A stretch of 64,000 nucleotides of DNA, from contig DJWO01000014.1 in assembly GCA_002441005.1 (NCBI GenBank), forward strand, positions 88,662 through 152,661. Direction: 5' to 3'. Source of the stretch: Candidatus Aminicenantes bacterium UBA6228 (GTDB lineage Bacteria > Acidobacteriota > Aminicenantia > Aminicenantales > Saccharicenantaceae). The stretch's first letter is position 1. Each line of letters begins with the position of its first letter. The translations under genes and the position numbers were made by a program. Positions 2,385-60,080 of this stretch are shown one piece after another. Under the pieces are notes generated by a model that saw only the letters and a list, made by a program, of their open reading frames with translations, was not told the origin of the DNA and ran no database searches.

Positions 2385-3341
2385 ATGGCCAAGCGTTTTG
2401 GAATTATAACCAGGGATTGCGCCGGGATTAATGCTGCTTTAAGAGCTGTGGTCAGAACAGCGACGGGTAAGGAGACTGAAGTTTTTGGCATACTGCGGGG
2501 CTATGACGGGCTGATTGACGGCGAGCTGCGCCCCCTTGATCGCCGGGCGGTATCCGGCATCATCAATCTGGGTGGAACCATTCTGAAGTCGGCTCGCTCC
2601 GAAAGGTTTCTGACCCGGGAAGGCCAGGACCAGGCAGCCAAAACGATTGAAAAATATAAGCTTGATAGTTTAATAGTTATCGGTGGGAATGGCTCGCTAA
2701 CCGGAGCACATATCCTGGCAACTCAATATGGAGTTCAGGTAATCGGCCTGCCAGCTACGATTGACAATGATGTTAATCAGGTTGATCAATGTCTGGGAGC
2801 TGATACCGCCGTCAATGTCGCCCTGGATGCCCTGGATAAGATTCGTGACACCGCTACCAGTCTGGAGAGGATTTTTGTGGTGGAAGTCATGGGCCGCGAT
2901 TGTGGCTATATTGCCATGAAAGTGGCATTAGCCGGCGGCTGTGAAGATGTCATCCTGCCCGAACAGGACTTTGACCTCAATGAAATTTGCCGGGAGATTC
3001 AAGCCGGAAACGCTCAGGGCAAGGTCAGCTGGATTATTATTGTGGCTGAGGGCAAAGCCCGGGCCCAGGACGTGGCGACGGCCATCACTTTATTGACCGG
3101 GCTCGAGACCAGAATCGCCGTCCTCGGCCATATCCAGCGAGGCGGCCGCCCGACAGCTATTGACCGCCTGCTTGGAGCCAAGCTGGGCAGTGCCGCTGTG
3201 GAAGCTCTTCTGGCCGGGGAAACTGATAAATGTGTCGCTCTGAAAGATGAAGAGATTAAACTCATTCCCCTGGAAACAGCTATAAAACCTAAAAAACTGA
3301 TCTTTGAGCCTGAATACCGGTTGCTAAAGCTTTTATCCTGA
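2385..3341 (+). CDS. pfkA: 6-phosphofructokinase (PfkA family), with an atypical N-terminal loop
   Basis: GGTILKSAR, IGGNGS, PATIDND, VEVMGR and LGHIQRGG motifs. Start placed at MAKRFG (GAGG RBS) rather than 2358. Confidence 0.88.
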   Translation: MAKRFGIITRDCAGINAALRAVVRTATGKETEVFGILRGYDGLIDGELRPLDRRAVSGIINLGGTILKSARSERFLTREGQDQAAKTIEKYKLDSLIVIGGNGSLTGAHILATQYGVQVIGLPATIDNDVNQVDQCLGADTAVNVALDALDKIRDTATSLERIFVVEVMGRDCGYIAMKVALAGGCEDVILPEQDFDLNEICREIQAGNAQGKVSWIIIVAEGKARAQDVATAITLLTGLETRIAVLGHIQRGGRPTAIDRLLGAKLGSAAVEALLAGETDKCVALKDEEIKLIPLETAIKPKKLIFEPEYRLLKLLS

Positions 3342-3363
3342 AGCTAAACCGGCCTTCATCTTT

Positions 3364-5049
3364 TTATTTAGCTGATTTTTTCGGCAAACAGGGCATTTTA
3401 ATCTTATTCCGGCGGGCACAGGCGATAGCCTCTTCATAACCGGCATCAGCATGGCGGACAACACCAATCCCGGGATCAACGGTCAGGACACGTTCGAGAC
3501 GCTTAGCCATGGCGGCTGAACCGTCGGCCACGATCACCATGCCAGCATGAATAGACAGCCCAATTCCGACTCCGCCGCCATGATGAACCGACACCCAGGA
3601 AGCCCCATTGACCGCATTAAGCAGAGCATTAAGGATCGGCCAGTCAGCAATCGCATCCGAACCATCTTTCATCTTTTCCGTCTCCCGGTTAGGCGAAGCA
3701 ACTGAACCGGTATCTAAATGATCCCGGCCAATAACTATCGGGGCGCTTATTTTTCCCTTCTTAACAAGGGTATTTATTACATCGCCGAAAAGCGCTCTTT
3801 CTCCATAGCCAAGCCAGCAGAGACGGGCCGGTAGCCCCTGAAATTTGACCTTCTGCTGAGCATTTTTGATCCACCTGGCTAAAGACTCATCTTCAGGAAA
3901 CATCTTGAGCACGGCCTCATCGGTGGCATAAATGTCTTCCGGCTTGCCAGACAGGGCCACCCAGCGAAAAGGACCTTTCCCCAAGCAAAAAAGCGGCCTG
4001 ATATATTCTTGAACAAAACCGGGAATGTCAAAAGCTTTTTCCACACCTGCTTTTTGGGCCTGACCGCGGAGGTTGTTGCCATAATCAAAAGTTCTGGCCC
4101 CTCTTTTCTGAAGTTCGAGCATAGCCTCAACGTGAGCTGCCATTGATTCGTAGGAGCGGCGGATATAATCCTGTGGATTATTTTTTCTCAGCTCGAGAGC
4201 TTCCTCATAAGGCAACCCGCGAGGCACATAGCCATTGAGTTCGTCATGAGCTGAGGTTTGATCTGTCAGAACATCGGGCGTAATTCCTCTCTTAACCAGC
4301 TCAGGCAAAAGATCAGCAGCATTAGCCAGAAGGGCAATAGATAACGGCTGGCCTTTTTTACAGGCTTCGTTAGCCATTTTCAAAGCTTCATCCAAGCTCT
4401 CAGTCATGGTGTCAACATATTTAGTATCAAGACGGCGCTTGATTCTGACTGGATCAACTTCAGCAATAATGGCCACTCCCCCGTTCATGGTGACGGCCAG
4501 CGGCTGGGCACCACCCATGCCACCCAGGCCGGCGGTGACCACCAGTCTGCCCTTGAGCGATCCGCCAAAATGCTTCCTGGCAGCGGCGGCTAAGGTTTCA
4601 AAAGTGCCCTGTAGAATACCCTGAGTCCCAATATAGATCCAGCTGCCGGCGGTCATCTGGCCATACATGGTCAGGCCCAGAGCTTCCAGCCGCCGGAATT
4701 CATCCCAGGTAGCCCACTTTGGCACCAGCATAGCATTAGAAATCAAGACTCGCGGGGCTTCCAGGTGGGTTTTAAAGATACCCACAGGTTTGCCCGACTG
4801 AACGAGCAGAGTTTCATCGTTCTCGAGTTTTTTTAAGCTGCTGACAATGGCTCGAAAGCAATCCCAGTTACGAGCAGCTTTTCCGGTACCGCCATAAACA
4901 ATTAGTTCCTGTGGCTTTTCGGCCACCTCCGGATCGAGGTTATTCATCAGCATCCGCCTAGCCGCTTCTTGTGACCAGCCCCGGCAATGCAGACTGTTGC
5001 CGCGCGGAGCCCGGACAGGTTTATAAGCTATCTTTTCTTTTTCAGCCAT
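3364..5049 (-). CDS. hutU: Urocanate hydratase
   Basis: [68 protein letters not shown]. Confidence 0.97.
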
Positions 5050-54766: not shown

Positions 54767-55173
54767 TTTTAACCTCCTTATTGTAGCTATTTTTAGATTA
54801 TCAATTTTAGCTGAATCAGGCAACAGCCATCTTCCCAACAGACATGACCCAAATTGAGATTAAGGCGTTATAATTTTAAGAACTGCAAATGAAAGGAATC
54901 TAAGAACTTACAAAAATAAAGCTGGAGTTGTCGGCACCTGGCTTCAATGGGTCAGAGTTAGTCGGGGAAAAAGTTAGAGCCATGATTGCCAGGAAGTTTT
55001 TCAGAAAAGCAGGACGCTTGAATTGCTTCAGTTTTTGGCGCTGGCTCTAAGAAAATTTTAATGGTGGTGTCTACTGGACGATGTCAGAACTTTCTTCCAA
55101 CAAAATCCTGACGCTGACTGACGCAAAATTGCGAAGCATTTTTGCACTGCTATCTAAATTCCTAAAATTTATG

Positions 55174-55267
55174 AGTATAACGTTTCCAGCATATACGACG
55201 TTTTGCGATAGCAAAATGTCCCGAATGGCAAGGGCGTAAGCCCGTAGCATATATGCTGTGTTATGTG
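55174..55267 (-). other. attC site (cassette 2)
   Basis: Minus strand CACATAAC-A-CAGCATATA ... TATATGCTG-GAAAC-GTTATACT; 94-bp imperfect palindrome 17 bp after a stop codon. Confidence 0.85.
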
Positions 55268-55284
55268 ATGTCTGCGTGCCAATT

Positions 55285-55890
55285 TCAACTTTTTCTAAAT
55301 AAGTCAAGTGATGGTTCAATTAACTTCTTGCGGATAGTTTCACTATTATTAATTTCAAACAAATTATTCTCTACTAATTCTCCCTGAATTTTTATATATG
55401 CGTCCTCATAATCAATTTTTTCTATATTTTTGAAAATCTTATCGTCATTATATTCAAGATGACCCGTTACATTTTCAAATTTGCCAACCCATTTAACTTG
55501 AGGTTTCTTATGAATGTTATATAATACCCCTGCATAGACTTTCGGTTCATTAATATTTTTATCCCTAAGTATTATCCTTAAATATAAGATTTTTAAATTA
55601 TCGTCTATCTCTGTTATAGTTTGACCACGTTCGACCCTGGTTTTGTCCTTAGGAACAAAAAATACAGCGAATTTTCTCAACAGCCACAAATTGACATTAG
55701 TTGACTCTAATCCTGTTGAACTTCTTGCACTTATACCATAACCAGCAGGTCTTCCAATAATGAATTTCTCCTCTTCTTCATGCAAGATACCTTCTATTTC
55801 TTTAATCAAATAGGAAACCTCAAGATACAATTTTTGAATAAAATCAAACGCTAAATTTGTCTGCTCGATAATTTCACTTTTGTTAATCAT
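55285..55890 (-). CDS. Hypothetical cassette protein (201 aa)
   Basis: Start MINKSE at 55890 (GGAG RBS), overlapping the upstream stop by 8 nt; AT-rich codons; no motif recognised. Confidence 0.75.
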   Translation of the reverse strand: MINKSEIIEQTNLAFDFIQKLYLEVSYLIKEIEGILHEEEEKFIIGRPAGYGISARSSTGLESTNVNLWLLRKFAVFFVPKDKTRVERGQTITEIDDNLKILYLRIILRDKNINEPKVYAGVLYNIHKKPQVKWVGKFENVTGHLEYNDDKIFKNIEKIDYEDAYIKIQGELVENNLFEINNSETIRKKLIEPSLDLFRKS

Positions 55891-56722
55891 GGCTCCAGTC
55901 CTCCTTATAAAATATGGGGGGGTCAATATACTTTAACTTCCCTAATTGCAGCAGAGGCATAAATATCTTTTTCTGATTGGTAAGGAAGATTGTTTTCTTC
56001 ACCGGCGTGATCTTTTTTTCAAATAACAGACTTTGCATAAAACCGATAAAGGCGCCACGAAATTTAGCTGTTCTTATCTCAAAGAAAATGGAGACATAGC
56101 TTTTTAGAGAAGCGCTTACGTTATAGAGGTAATTGAGACCTTGAAAATCCCGAAGATTTTTCTTATCCAATAAGTTATATAGATCCAAAGCAAAATCTCG
56201 CTGTTGCTTTTTCATGTTTCTATTACTTTCTAGGACATTATAGAGAAACGAGGAAACTGATTGCCAATTAGTCCATTTAAAACGATGGATAAACTCTGGC
56301 GAGATTATTTTAAATTTATGTTCTTTATAATAATAGTCAGCAGTAATTGCGATTAACCAAAAATCCTTACCATAGTTCTTTGCCTCTAATTTTCCGCCAT
56401 GGATTTCACGTAGTAGTTGGGCTTTGGTTTTTTTAGTCTCCTCGGCGAATCCTGAAAAATATTTAGCTTCTATCAGTAGATAGTAATTCCCAACTATTAT
56501 GACTAAATCTGGTTCAGTATTTTCCTCAAAACGAGGCCAAAATATAAATTCTGCCTCATTAGCTTCCTAGTTAGAGATGTCAAAGCCCAATTTGTTCAAA
56601 TATCCTTTAAGAAAAATTTCTCGGTCTGAATATTTGAAAAAGGAAAAGACATTGGATGTCAGAATATCTTCCATTCTTTCAATTCTAGAAGTCAATTTGC
56701 CATGTAATTCAGCTAAGTACAT
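55883..56722 (-). pseudogene. PD-(D/E)XK nuclease-like cassette gene interrupted by an in-frame TAG at codon 52
   Basis: Single 280-codon frame MYLAELHGKL..EDILTSNVF..SN*EANEAEF..TEPDLVI..LLIEAKY..WTNWQ; TAG at 56567-56569. Confidence 0.8.
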
Positions 56723-56753
56723 TTTATCACCTTTGTGCTATGCACGCAGATTT

Positions 56754-56844
56754 CACATAACGTTCTCAGCATAAAAGAAGTTTTTGCGAAGCAAAAATTT
56801 GGGTGAGTGCCATAAAACACGAACCTTTTATGCTGTGTTATCTG
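56754..56844 (-). other. attC site (cassette 1)
   Basis: Minus strand CAGATAAC-A-CAGCATAAAAG ... CTTTTATGCTG-AGAAC-GTTATGTG; 91 bp, 16 bp after a stop codon; same architecture as the other attC. Confidence 0.85.
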
Positions 56845-56860
56845 TCTGTTTGTCGCCATA

Positions 56861-58216
56861 TTAATCTTTCCTTGGTCTTGCCCAATTGCAATATCTATGA
56901 GTTAGCCTAGCATTTTCAGGTATAGTTTTACCACCAGCCCAATATTGCTTGATATGATCAATTGCTGCATCATCTATATCTTGAATTTTCTGACCGCAAA
57001 TCGCACAGGTAGAATCATTTTTATAAAGTTCTTCCTTTAACTTCAAAGAAAAACAACGAGGTTCTTTTTTTGCAATACCAATTATGTCTTGAAGAGTTAG
57101 TCGCCACTTATCAAATCGTTTTGTTACTGCTTCAACACTACTTGTGGAGAGTTCAATTGCATCTATAAAATCCTGATCATTGGTCATTAGATATATTAAG
57201 GCTTCACGAATTGAATCAAGGTTTTGATAAACTTTGTTTTTGTCTTCTCTCGCAAAAGAATACATCAGAATGTCATATAAAGATGCATTGAATTTTTTTG
57301 GTTCCCAATATCCGTTTCGATTCTTTTCATCACCTTTATAAAATCTCTTAAATGCGTGATTGTCTAACAAGGATTTTATTATAGTAACCGCATTTTTAAA
57401 GGCGTTTTTTAATTCAATGGCGTCCACTTCAGATATATCTTGATATTTCTCCATATCATTGTTAAGAAACTTCCTCATAGGTGGTTTATATTTCAAATAG
57501 GTAAAATGATAAAATGCTGCAAATCTAAGAACAAGTTCTATATCTTTCATCCTCTTGTCAGGCTTTTTAAGTCCTAATAAGTACATAAAATCGGTATCTT
57601 TAGAAAGTTCTTTTAGTAATTTGTTGTATAGTCCCCTGTAGATGCAATTCCTTAATTCTTGATCGTTTAAAGATACTGCCCCTGTATTTAGTCGTTCAAA
57701 TATTTCAAATTTTAAATCAGCCTCTGACTCTCTCCGAAAAGTTATAGTGCGGATCTTACAATATCTTATTTTGTTTTGTAGCTTTCTATCTATCTCTTTA
57801 AACGATTTTCTGTTAAGTTCTGTAAATACTTTCAACCCGGTCAACTTAAAATCTATTCCGTCTGGAAATCGTCCATCTATAAATGAGAAAAAAGCGGTTA
57901 ATCTTTGTTGTCCATCAATGACATATTCTTTTCCATCTTTCTCTTCAGAGAGATAAATTACAGGGAGTGGTATATCCAAAAGTGCTGATTCTATTAGTCT
58001 GCTCGATTTTTTTGCATCCCATACAAAGTGTCTTTGGAAATCAGGCTGTATTATTAGATCTCCATCTTTATATTTCCTATAAAGTGAGTCTATCTCGGGA
58101 TCTCCCTGCTCTGTGTATACTCTTCTCTTTGTTGAAGAGACTTCTATATTCTCAATTTCTTCTTCTAATGGTTGCTCAAATTCGAGTTCGTTTAATTCTT
58201 CTGCTTCTTCATTCAT
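56861..58216 (-). CDS. DUF262 (GmrS/ParB-like) plus C-terminal HNH endonuclease protein
   Basis: IQPDFQRHFVW, VIDGQQRLT, IFERLNTG; CAICGQ..IDHIK..GGKT..NARLTHRYCN; GGAGG RBS. Confidence 0.88.
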   Translation of the reverse strand: MNEEAEELNELEFEQPLEEEIENIEVSSTKRRVYTEQGDPEIDSLYRKYKDGDLIIQPDFQRHFVWDAKKSSRLIESALLDIPLPVIYLSEEKDGKEYVIDGQQRLTAFFSFIDGRFPDGIDFKLTGLKVFTELNRKSFKEIDRKLQNKIRYCKIRTITFRRESEADLKFEIFERLNTGAVSLNDQELRNCIYRGLYNKLLKELSKDTDFMYLLGLKKPDKRMKDIELVLRFAAFYHFTYLKYKPPMRKFLNNDMEKYQDISEVDAIELKNAFKNAVTIIKSLLDNHAFKRFYKGDEKNRNGYWEPKKFNASLYDILMYSFAREDKNKVYQNLDSIREALIYLMTNDQDFIDAIELSTSSVEAVTKRFDKWRLTLQDIIGIAKKEPRCFSLKLKEELYKNDSTCAICGQKIQDIDDAAIDHIKQYWAGGKTIPENARLTHRYCNWARPRKD

Positions 58217-58243
58217 TCTATCACCTCCTTAGGCGACAAATTT

Positions 58244-58303
58244 CATATAACTCGTTTCTATACGAATTGAATGTATATGACCTTTTGGTGCATATTATAC
58301 GAA
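58244..58303 (-). other. attI-like site
   Basis: Minus-strand core GTTATATG (58251-58244) ahead of the first cassette, with no attC palindrome; TATACGAA direct repeats at 58259 and 58296. Confidence 0.6.
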
Positions 58304-58376
58304 CTTAATGTGTAATTATTAATCAAATTACTAATAATAACTTAAATACTTTTTTTTTACCAATTTTTATAGAATT

Positions 58377-58960
58377 ATGCAACAAAAATACTTGGAACAA
58401 ACAAAGCAAGAATTAAGATTAAGAATTTATAGTTTTAAAACTATAAAGGCTTATTTGGGCTGTCTGAGAGAATATTTTGATTTTAAAAAATTTAATTTGG
58501 AAAAAATAGACGAGGAAAATATAAAGCAATTTTTGTTAAATAAACAAAGTAGAAATTATTCTTCACAAACGATAAATCTTTACTTAAATACAATAAATTT
58601 TTCTACCGCGAAGTATTGAAAATTTCTCAAAATATAAATTTAAAATTCGCCAAGCGAAGTAAAAAACTACCGATTGTTCTATCAAGAGAAGAAATTAAAA
58701 ATATCATTGAGGCAATTAGAAATCCAAAACATAAATTGATAATTTCTTTGGCCTACGGCGCCGGATTAAGAATTAGCGAAGTTGTTAATTTAAAAGTAAA
58801 AGACGTTAATTTAGGAGAATTAACTATCCACCTTAAAAACGCTAAAGGCAAAAAGGACAGAATCACTATTTTCCCAGAAAAAATTAAAAATGATCTTCAA
58901 AACTTAATTGCTGGCAAAAACTTAAACGACTATCTTTATGAAAGCGAGCGAGGCGGCTAA
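58377..58960 (+). pseudogene. intI: Integron-type tyrosine integrase, frameshifted and 3'-truncated
   Basis: SAM-like N-terminus (YSFKTIKAY, SSQTINLYLN); frameshift near 58594-58602 (one added base restores FFYREVLK); KKLPIVLSREE, YGAGLRISE, KGKKDR; ends at ESERGG* before the HxxR and Tyr boxes. Confidence 0.85.
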
Positions 58961-58967
58961 TTCAATA

Positions 58968-59043
58968 TGGTGGAGCTGACCGGGCTCGAACCGGCGACCC
59001 CGTGACTGCCAGTCACGTACTCTCCCAACTGAGCTACAGCCCC
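58968..59043 (-). tRNA. tRNA-Ala(GGC)
   Basis: GGGGCTG/CAGCTCC acceptor stem, CGTGA-CTGGCAG-TCACG anticodon arm, TTCGAGC T-loop, encoded CCA. Confidence 0.96.
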
Positions 59044-59056
59044 ACCGGGTAAGTTT

Positions 59057-59085
59057 ATAATACAGAAAACCACCTTTTCCGTCAA
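59057..59085 (-). promoter_or_regulatory. Promoter of tRNA-Ala
   Basis: Minus strand TTGACG-N17-TATTAT. Confidence 0.6.
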
Positions 59086-59259
59086 GAAAAACAGGGGACA
59101 CAATCTATATTTCCTATTTTTTCTGGACTTTTCTTTGAAGAAAATCACTCTGGTCCTCAAAGAACCGGGTCGTCTTTTCCTGAAAGCTCAACTCCATAAT
59201 GTCAAAAACAAGATAAAAACAGAATGGAATCTTAAATAAAAAAGGCAAGTAACATAAAC

Positions 59260-59727
59260 TTATTCAGAAACTTTTAGTTCTTCTGCCTTCTTGAAGTCCG
59301 TTGTTTCATTCCCTATTCTTTTTAAACAGACAAGACGTACATTTCCTTCTTTATCCTGGATAAAGATAAATATAAAATTTTCTGATATCGACAAACCCCA
59401 AGCCTCCAGATTTATCCGGGCGAGTGTTTTGCCCTTTCTGTTAATGAGCCAATATTTCGTTTTTTCTCCGGGCTTTGATGGACTGGCAATCAGGAGATTA
59501 CCCTCGGGCGTCAAAGAAATTCCCTCTATATTCGGTTTTTTATCATAATCAGTTTTCCATTAAAATCATAAACTTTTAAATTTCTGCTTAACCCGTCAGA
59601 AAAAACGATTGAGTACACCTTCACCTTCTTTTGCACCCAGGAAAAAGTGATCTTCTCCTGCGTTAAGATATAACACCAGACAAAAAACAAAAAATGAGCT
59701 CAGCCAAAAAATCTTTTTCCCCATCAT
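59260..59727 (-). pseudogene. Degraded exported (beta-propeller-like) protein gene
   Basis: Signal peptide MMGKKIFWLSSFFVFCLVLYLNA, early stop, then out-of-frame blocks (LKVYDFNGKLI; YWLINRKGKTLARI) ending at 59260. 5' coordinate approximate. Confidence 0.5.
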
Positions 59728-60080
59728 TTTAGTTTCACCCCTATTTTATATATTGCTTTTTCTGGCTATGGCCAACTTTTTGTTGCTACTTCTTTCTAAC
59801 GGGCCATGATCCCCGACATAATTTGACCACCTTTATTGCTTGATATCAACTCAACGAATTAACTCATCTAAAATCTACTCGAAATTATTTTGCCTGCCAA
59901 TTTGTCTCATAATATAAATATTTAACTTGACAAAAAAACCACCAGAAATAAGATATATTTTCTTAAGATTTTTGATTCCAATGAACAATCTGATTGAAGT
60001 GTTCGATGCGAAACCCAGAAAATAAATGACCTGTTTGTTTTTGTCTATAAAATCTCACACCCTCTCAAGGAAGGAGGCCC

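Follow-up and report, generated by a model that had tools for sequence, protein, structure and literature searches.

A two-gene PD-(D/E)XK nuclease cassette in a Candidatus Aminicenantes genome: a candidate integron-borne defence system interrupted by a nonsense codon

We describe two overlapping genes in a 64,000-nucleotide stretch of the genome of Candidatus Aminicenantes bacterium UBA6228 (contig DJWO01000014.1, positions 88,662 to 152,661; hereafter the window). The first codes for a PD-(D/E)XK nuclease that is broken by one nonsense codon, and the second for an intact 201-aa partner. The reading that we find the most probable, with moderate confidence, is that the pair is a two-subunit anti-phage or anti-plasmid defence nuclease, carried as an integron cassette and inactive in this genome. 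The observations that bear on it are the strict adjacency of the two genes, their co-divergence and occasional fusion, the attC boundaries of the cassette, defence-island neighbours elsewhere, an intact catalytic triad, and a nonsense codon that looks recent.

A conserved nuclease-partner pair

The nuclease frame has 279 codons, the only internal stop being the TAG at codon 52, and it includes the motifs EPD (D72) and IEAK (E85 and K87), both intact in the window copy. The partner gene starts with an ATG at 55890 and ends with a stop codon at 55285–55287. A sequence-only reading of this stretch had described the same arrangement: a 279-codon frame with EPD..IEAK, coupled by an 8-nt overlap to a 201-aa protein without a recognisable motif, the nuclease broken by a single TAG and the partner intact, only fragments of the nuclease in the open reading frame (ORF) list, and both genes travelling as one cassette. 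Minus-strand translation reproduces the frame, the overlap and the stop at the coordinates in Table 1, the ORF list shows the nuclease as fragments of 51 aa and 110 aa, and the cassette is supported by attC-like boundaries and by ends that are conserved in other arrays (see below). The search for intact homologous pairs that this reading proposed found them elsewhere.

The two genes travel together as an obligate unit. All 76 informative metagenome loci that were anchored on the nuclease have the partner directly after it, and the nuclease lies directly upstream of the partner in 15 of the 16 species genomes with enough upstream sequence, the exception being an orphan partner in a Dethiobacter metagenome-assembled genome (MAG; L030, where L numbers denote homologous loci). 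The spacing between the two genes ranges from -47 to +4 nt (overlap or gap) in these homologous loci. The two proteins have diverged together (Mantel r = 0.89 for 70 loci, with 0 of 999 permutations as high) and to an equal mean extent (0.33), and in at least four lineages they are fused as one polypeptide (P0258, 479 aa; P0281, 409 aa; P0391, 387 aa; and a 473-aa ORF in L035). The pair would be an operon of two genes, passed on by descent and by transfer as a single unit across bacterial phyla and archaea.

Relatives are numerous for both proteins, with 883 for the nuclease and 616 for the partner at 90% clustering (703 for the partner with a profile), and every one of the partner relatives is annotated as 'hypothetical'. 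Since there are hundreds of nuclease homologues, and all have Gln at the position of the window's TAG, the nuclease frame is no chance ORF. The partner relatives are typically 65–90% identical and are found in Planctomycetota, Bacillota, Desulfobacterota, Chloroflexota, Actinomycetota, Omnitrophota and archaea; an exhaustive phmmer search of 1.84 billion representatives gives just 167 partner clusters at 50% identity, and the family is therefore small and compact. Its distribution is patchy (20 of 185,579 species genomes), which is consistent with horizontal transfer. No relatives of the pair were found in the IMG/VR viral contigs and a search of 72,556 plasmids gave one distant nuclease match only, on which grounds a phage origin of the pair was rejected.

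Two loci have unusual arrangements. In L031, a 1295-nt Candidatus Hakubella contig, partner and nuclease fragments are on opposite strands, facing each other and meeting at about position 497, which is probably a palindromic mis-assembly. In L064 a complete pair is followed, after 1.3 kb, by an isolated second copy of the first 45 nuclease codons (3340–3474, 91% identity to the query), which may be a cassette fragment.

By its catalytic motif, the product of the first gene is a PD-(D/E)XK nuclease. An alignment of 20 diverse homologues shows no variation at D72, E85 and K87, and has a conserved EDxLTSNVFSFFKY helix as well. The protein is organized as a core (residues 1–210) followed by a repeat-bearing tail with the motif TAKFRGxFIGF...IF(Y/F)KE, which is tandemly duplicated in forms of 308–316 aa. 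The duplication is about 33 aa long (TAKFRGxFIGF...KKITP.RKTIFLS) and is seen in L023 (5070–6017), L025 (5064–5996) and P0126, such that the number of tail repeats is variable. In the AlphaFold2 model the core has a predicted local distance difference test score (pLDDT) of 80–95 with the structural elements in the expected order, and Foldseek matches the model, at modest scores, with the R.BspD6I small subunit (2p14, probability 0.91), AF1548 (1y88, 0.84) and McrC, and further with an arenavirus cap-snatching endonuclease and the R2 endonuclease domain (RLE). At the sequence level, all 20 of the diverse homologues match the PADLOC profile PDC-M15A (best E-value 3e-13, about 40 bits, profile positions 3–215), as does the window nuclease (2.4e-11), with a weak score of about 40 bits. 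There is no match to a curated family above threshold, the Pfam family NERD reaching 15.4 bits vs a cut-off of 22.1; one homologue matches PDDEXK_4 at 1e-5.

The partner belongs to a new family, and its fold and its cross-domain cassette vehicle are also new. Its AlphaFold2 model (pLDDT 82, predicted template modelling score 0.81) is an alpha+beta structure with long N- and C-terminal helices on an antiparallel sheet. Neither PHROGs, a phmmer search of the PDB, the phmmer search of 1.84 billion representatives, nor a profile search of 5.8 billion proteins yields an annotation, and no helix-turn-helix (HTH), ribbon-helix-helix (RHH) or other domain was found with Pfam and profile searches. Among the non-significant Foldseek resemblances (E-values 0.14–2), siphovirus major tail or tail-tube proteins and SRPBCC/Bet v1-type helix-grip proteins recur.

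The cassette and its putative integron

Both genes of the pair are within a low-GC island (about 55000–60000; 33% GC vs 50% for the genome), and the layout suggests a decayed integron, next to a tRNA-Ala gene, in which this locus is the second cassette. The order is integrase remnant, attI-like site, a cassette with a DUF262-HNH gene, an attC-like site, the nuclease-partner cassette, and a second attC-like site (Table 1).

Both attC-like sites consist of outer boxes ATAAC...GTTAT and an 11-bp inner stem, and when five sites from three genomes are compared, the inner stem stays paired, with compensatory changes at 10 of the 19 predicted pairs of the sites. The R' core of integrons is GTTRRRY, and cassette boundaries fall at G|TT; the R' cores here (GTTATGT, GTTATAC, GTTATCT and GTTATAT) retain the GTT but not the purine run. 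The R' (GTTAT) of the first site is the start of the pair cassette. A search with a covariance model of these five sites turned up additional ones, with a four-site array in L020, an archaeal MAG, two sites in L019, and sites directly after the partner gene in L041, L046, L049 and L050–L053, and sites near-identical to the second attC-like site follow the partner in L019, L020, L041, L046, L049 and L053. The cassette ends are conserved behind differing upstream sequence in L001, L019 and L020 (5' GTTAT-N-TGAAATCTGCGTGC and 3' GGCACGCAGACATCA-N-ATAAC); homology between arrays begins right after GTTAT in L001 and L020, and stops at the attC in L019 and L020. In metagenome run X10 the pair is behind a different cassette of 848 nt.

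The attC cores (56747–56868 and 55222–55282) have 3–10 times the contig depth of the genes, with unrelated flanks, in eight metagenomes, and this class of attC seems to be common to many other cassettes in these communities. The complementarity of the two cassette ends over 20 nt extends the R''/R' pairing well past the usual 7 bp after circularisation. A joint in run X10 (55268>56750) was not adopted as an excision product; it has 34 nt on its short side, is 88% alike, and is within the inverted repeats.

No promoter-like site was found within the pair cassette, and two face the cassettes from the attI-like region. The attI-like motif is common to the window and L001, where it is in front of the pair; in L001 (5000–6700) the pair is directly behind a 299-aa Xer-like recombinase, with the attI-like motif ataaaaatgaGTTAT on both sides, and the attC is missing. 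The recombinase remnant of the window matches TIGR02249 (3.6e-25) and NF040815 (XerA/IntI; 3.8e-25), covering TIGR02249 positions 2–178 of 315, and the IntI-specific region is missing. Only 8 nt separate the end of the remnant from the 3' end of the tRNA-Ala gene, such that the integrase truncation and the island edge coincide, which is compatible with entry of the island at the tRNA or with a later event that cut the integron.

Table 1. Coordinates of the pair and of the surrounding integron-like features in the window
Feature	Position	Strand	Remarks
PD-(D/E)XK nuclease gene, pseudogene	55883..56722	-	279 codons; catalytic D72, E85, K87 intact
In-frame TAG, codon 52 of nuclease	56567..56569	-	Gln in homologues, CAG in sister strains
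Partner gene, intact, 201 aa	55285..55890	-	Family without annotation or known fold
Overlap of nuclease stop and partner start, 8 nt	55883..55890	-	
attC-like site 1	56755..56844	-	Closes the DUF262-HNH cassette; 86 bits (covariance model)
attC-like site 2, putative recombination site of the pair cassette	55175..55267	-	92.9 bits (covariance model)
20-nt inverted repeat joining the pair-cassette ends	arms 55260..55279 and 56742..56761		90% complementary
First cassette: DUF262 (GmrSD_N) + HNH protein, 451 aa, intact	56861..58216	-	
attI-like junction ttcgtataGaaaCgaGTTAT with two sigma-70-like promoter matches facing the cassettes	58230..58365	-	
Tyrosine recombinase remnant in two frames	58377..58960	+	Closest to integron integrase / XerA
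tRNA-Ala(GGC), right edge of low-GC island	58968..59043	-	

The nonsense codon

A single base change at 56569 converts Gln-52 of the nuclease to TAG and leaves the remainder of the frame undamaged. The window frame has no in-frame ATG, GTG or TTG between codons 53 and 169, and the catalytic core is thus not restorable by re-initiation. The stop recurs in independently assembled oil-production and hydrocarbon metagenomes, which come from two or more studies, and an assembly error is ruled out for this reason; reassignment of TAG was rejected too, as TAG terminates 3 of the 35 long ORFs of the window. The 279-aa products that appear in gene calls are instances of the TAG being read as Q on short contigs. 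Alleles were compared on assembled Logan contigs, with the window's base kept in contigs of runs X1, X3 and X5, and the other base, giving CAG (Gln), in contigs of runs X9–X13. Groundwater, aquatic, bioreactor and activated-sludge samples are the source of the Gln-bearing contigs, which are approximately 99% identical to the sequence here and have the same left and right flanks. Because the nuclease is intact in sister strains with the same flanks, the stop seems to be a recent, lineage-specific loss, and the TAG itself is real.

The nuclease gene here could still yield no more than 51 aa from the N-terminus and, perhaps, a C-terminal fragment of 110 aa, and the system is presumably inactive in this genome. 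The partner should still be translatable from its own ribosome-binding site, an AAGGAGG (55900–55906) 9 nt 5' of its start and inside the conserved ...YKED C-terminus of the nuclease.

Decay of the pair is rare and not one-sided. Among approximately 100 independent loci, the nuclease is interrupted only in the window and in L001, which has the only second true premature stop (codon 250), and the partner is truncated in L042 and L038, with an intact nuclease beside the truncated partner in L042. For L020 and L025, tblastn also reported 'stops', which are simply where 275-aa forms end, and recurrent silencing of the nuclease was rejected.

These patterns bear on the suggestion, made in the sequence-only reading, that the pair could be a toxin-antitoxin (TA) cassette in which the toxic part has been silenced. 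On a full TA reading the nuclease would be the toxin, the partner would neutralise it, the pair would stabilise the array, and the TAG would be a selected silencing. Type II TA systems typically have a small DNA-binding antitoxin, an autoregulated promoter of their own, and a labile antitoxin that is separable from a stable toxin. The pair shares with TA modules the organization as a translationally coupled two-gene operon, but the proteins are 279 and 201 aa in size, there is no HTH- or RHH-type antitoxin domain, the cassette has no promoter-like site of its own, and the fused polypeptides of at least four lineages are hard to square with a labile antitoxin and a stable toxin. The broken nuclease beside an intact partner here, the truncated nuclease of L001 and the orphan partner of L030 are as silencing would predict, but the truncated partner beside an intact nuclease in L042, the tolerance of the intact pair by sister strains, and the rarity of nonsense or frameshift decay in either direction do not fit this pattern. 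TA genes are abundant among integron cassettes (PMC10661359), but we regard the TA option as weakened and improbable.

Function and relation to known systems

We return to the reading of the pair as a defence nuclease. Outside integrons, genes of known defence systems adjoin it in L032 (Gabija GajA/GajB, E-value approximately 1e-222, together with an IIG/DrmMI-like methylase), in L036 (a Type III Mod and Res) and in L039 (BREX PglZ/BrxL, Mrr, McrA-like and HD genes), and in L004 it is adjoined by a GIY-YIG gene; in the window itself its neighbour is GmrSD-like. Integron cassettes are known to carry defence systems (bioRxiv 10.1101/2024.07.02.601719; PMC10661359), and the module would be a system of the type that integrons stockpile. 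The two proteins would form one enzyme, with the nuclease as the DNA-cutting effector and the partner as a regulatory or target-recognising subunit. None of the loci has a methyltransferase that moves with the pair, so it would fall to the partner to tell self from non-self, whether by recognition of modified or foreign DNA or by release of the nuclease when infection occurs. A narrower version, which we put forward tentatively and consider rather doubtful, is that this is a new anti-phage system, unlike all validated ones, whose PD-(D/E)XK effector is gated by a partner of unseen fold acting as infection sensor, and which moves as an integron cassette from one to the other of Bacteria and Archaea.

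Should the pair act in defence, the known nuclease systems would gain a compact one that has two genes, no methylase, and a sensor or regulator subunit whose fold has no known match. The pair would then be a clear example, from uncultured anaerobes and archaea, of immunity genes that an integron carries as a cassette, and would extend the view of integrons as defence biobanks beyond Vibrio and clinical integrons.

Several points weigh against the defence reading. The nuclease model is of moderate quality (pLDDT 70 overall, and below 55 in the tail, 195–279), and its Foldseek scores are low (E-values 5e-3 to 3e-2, template modelling (TM) scores no higher than 0.35). The partner family gives no convincing match in Pfam or PADLOC with 57 diverse members, nothing in the PDB with the family profile, nothing in NCBIfam, and no significant match in Foldseek (best E-values 0.44 in PDB and 0.14 in BFVD). 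The association with defence islands is seen in a handful of loci, and PDC-M15, the listed system to which the nuclease is related, is itself a candidate that rests on guilt-by-embedding only. As to the integron, the recombinase remnant is not distinguishable from a Xer-type recombinase, and most of the distant homologous loci have no match to the narrow attC model, which limits the evidence for a cassette state to the clade closest to the window; the distant homologues are in ordinary chromosomal contexts.

A variant of the defence reading is a restriction-type enzyme that needs no methylase, specifically a modification-dependent heterodimer of Type IV with the partner as reader of modified bases, which would be active constitutively rather than triggered by infection. 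The lack of a methyltransferase, the presence of a heterodimeric restriction enzyme subunit (2p14) and McrC among the best folds, the GmrSD-type Type IV-like enzyme in the neighbouring cassette, and the Mrr and McrA-like genes beside the pair in L039 are all in keeping with it, but the fold matches have low TM-scores, and the partner has no similarity to the modified-base readers SRA, PUA/EVE, YTH and winged helix in Foldseek and profile searches. We consider this variant an outside chance, to about the same degree as the TA option.

PD-(D/E)XK nucleases have many different roles, and in three Planctomycetota species the pair has a transketolase gene on one side and a sulfatase gene on the other, lacks defence genes as neighbours, and retains no more than a remnant of the 5' cassette end. 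This setting, together with the very high conservation across phyla (65–90% identity) and the mobility of the cassette, could be taken to indicate an accessory role in DNA repair or recombination, or a selfish homing nuclease that spreads the cassette, but we find such a role the least probable of all given the patchy distribution, the repeated adjacency to known defence systems, the lack of relatives in viral contigs (IMG/VR), and the dispensability of the pair in the window genome and L001.

Within the favoured reading of a defence nuclease, one of the closest described systems is PDC-M15, a two-gene candidate (FAM_00087>>FAM_00103) with 241 RefSeq instances, proposed from its embedding in BREX, DISARM and Type I restriction-modification (RM) loci (Payne et al., bioRxiv 10.1101/2024.01.29.577857). 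Both systems have two co-directional genes with homologous first products (20 of 20 members), and both are embedded in or beside BREX and RM loci. However, the weak match of about 40 bits indicates that the nuclease of the pair is of a different subfamily, it has an extra 70-aa repeat-bearing tail, and the partner and 56 relatives have no PDC-M15B match (E <= 1). The proposal of the sequence-only reading that this is a new defence or TA system therefore stands in part: defence is plausible from the neighbours and the partner is new, but the nuclease is tied to PDC-M15A by the PADLOC comparison, in which the partner has no match of any kind at E <= 1. The profile matches suggest that the pair is not wholly undescribed, with its nuclease within the wider family listed as PDC-M15A, and the PDC-M15 candidate gains a wider family context.

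A plasmid of Niallia sp. Man26 (NZ_CP095745.1, 160858–162217; L121, 5998–7357) has a 258-aa PDC-M15A-like nuclease, distantly homologous to the one here (hhalign probability 97.7%, E-value 2e-12), followed by an overlapping 198-aa ORF, both annotated as hypothetical and flanked by HNH and GIY-YIG nuclease genes. The 198-aa ORF has no significant similarity to the partner (hhalign E-value 0.16), and the layout of a nuclease of approximately 260–280 aa with an overlapping gene of about 200 codons is thus broader than this family.

The pair also resembles the BRiCs, which are likewise units of one or two genes that lack a promoter, have attC sites as boundaries and are stored behind an integrase (a putative one for the pair), with homologues that are also found outside integrons without attC. 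None of the BRiCs is reported, in a search of the text only, as a PD-(D/E)XK nuclease with this partner; the hosts of the pair are uncultured anaerobes and archaea rather than clinical Gammaproteobacteria, and its attC sites differ in having a GTTAT core and approximately 20 nt of extended end complementarity. With R.BspD6I and McrBC the pair appears, from the predicted structure, to share a restriction-endonuclease fold (2p14, probability 0.91, and the McrC matches) and a separately encoded second subunit, but there is no sequence similarity, the pair has no GTPase/AAA+ partner or cognate methyltransferase, and the fold of the partner is unmatched.

The DUF262-HNH gene of the first cassette matches Pfam GmrSD_N (2.6e-30) and HNH (5e-7), and in PADLOC NsnA (2.3e-94) and PD-T4-2_A (1e-47). 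There are no NsnB or NsnC genes near it and neither gene of the pair matches either of these; a three-gene Menshen-like system was rejected on this basis, and since the pair occurs without the DUF262 gene elsewhere. The DUF262-HNH protein may be a stand-alone GmrSD/BrxU-like Type IV enzyme. The nuclease copy in this genome is a recently inactivated pseudogene, with an intact GmrSD-like cassette beside it.

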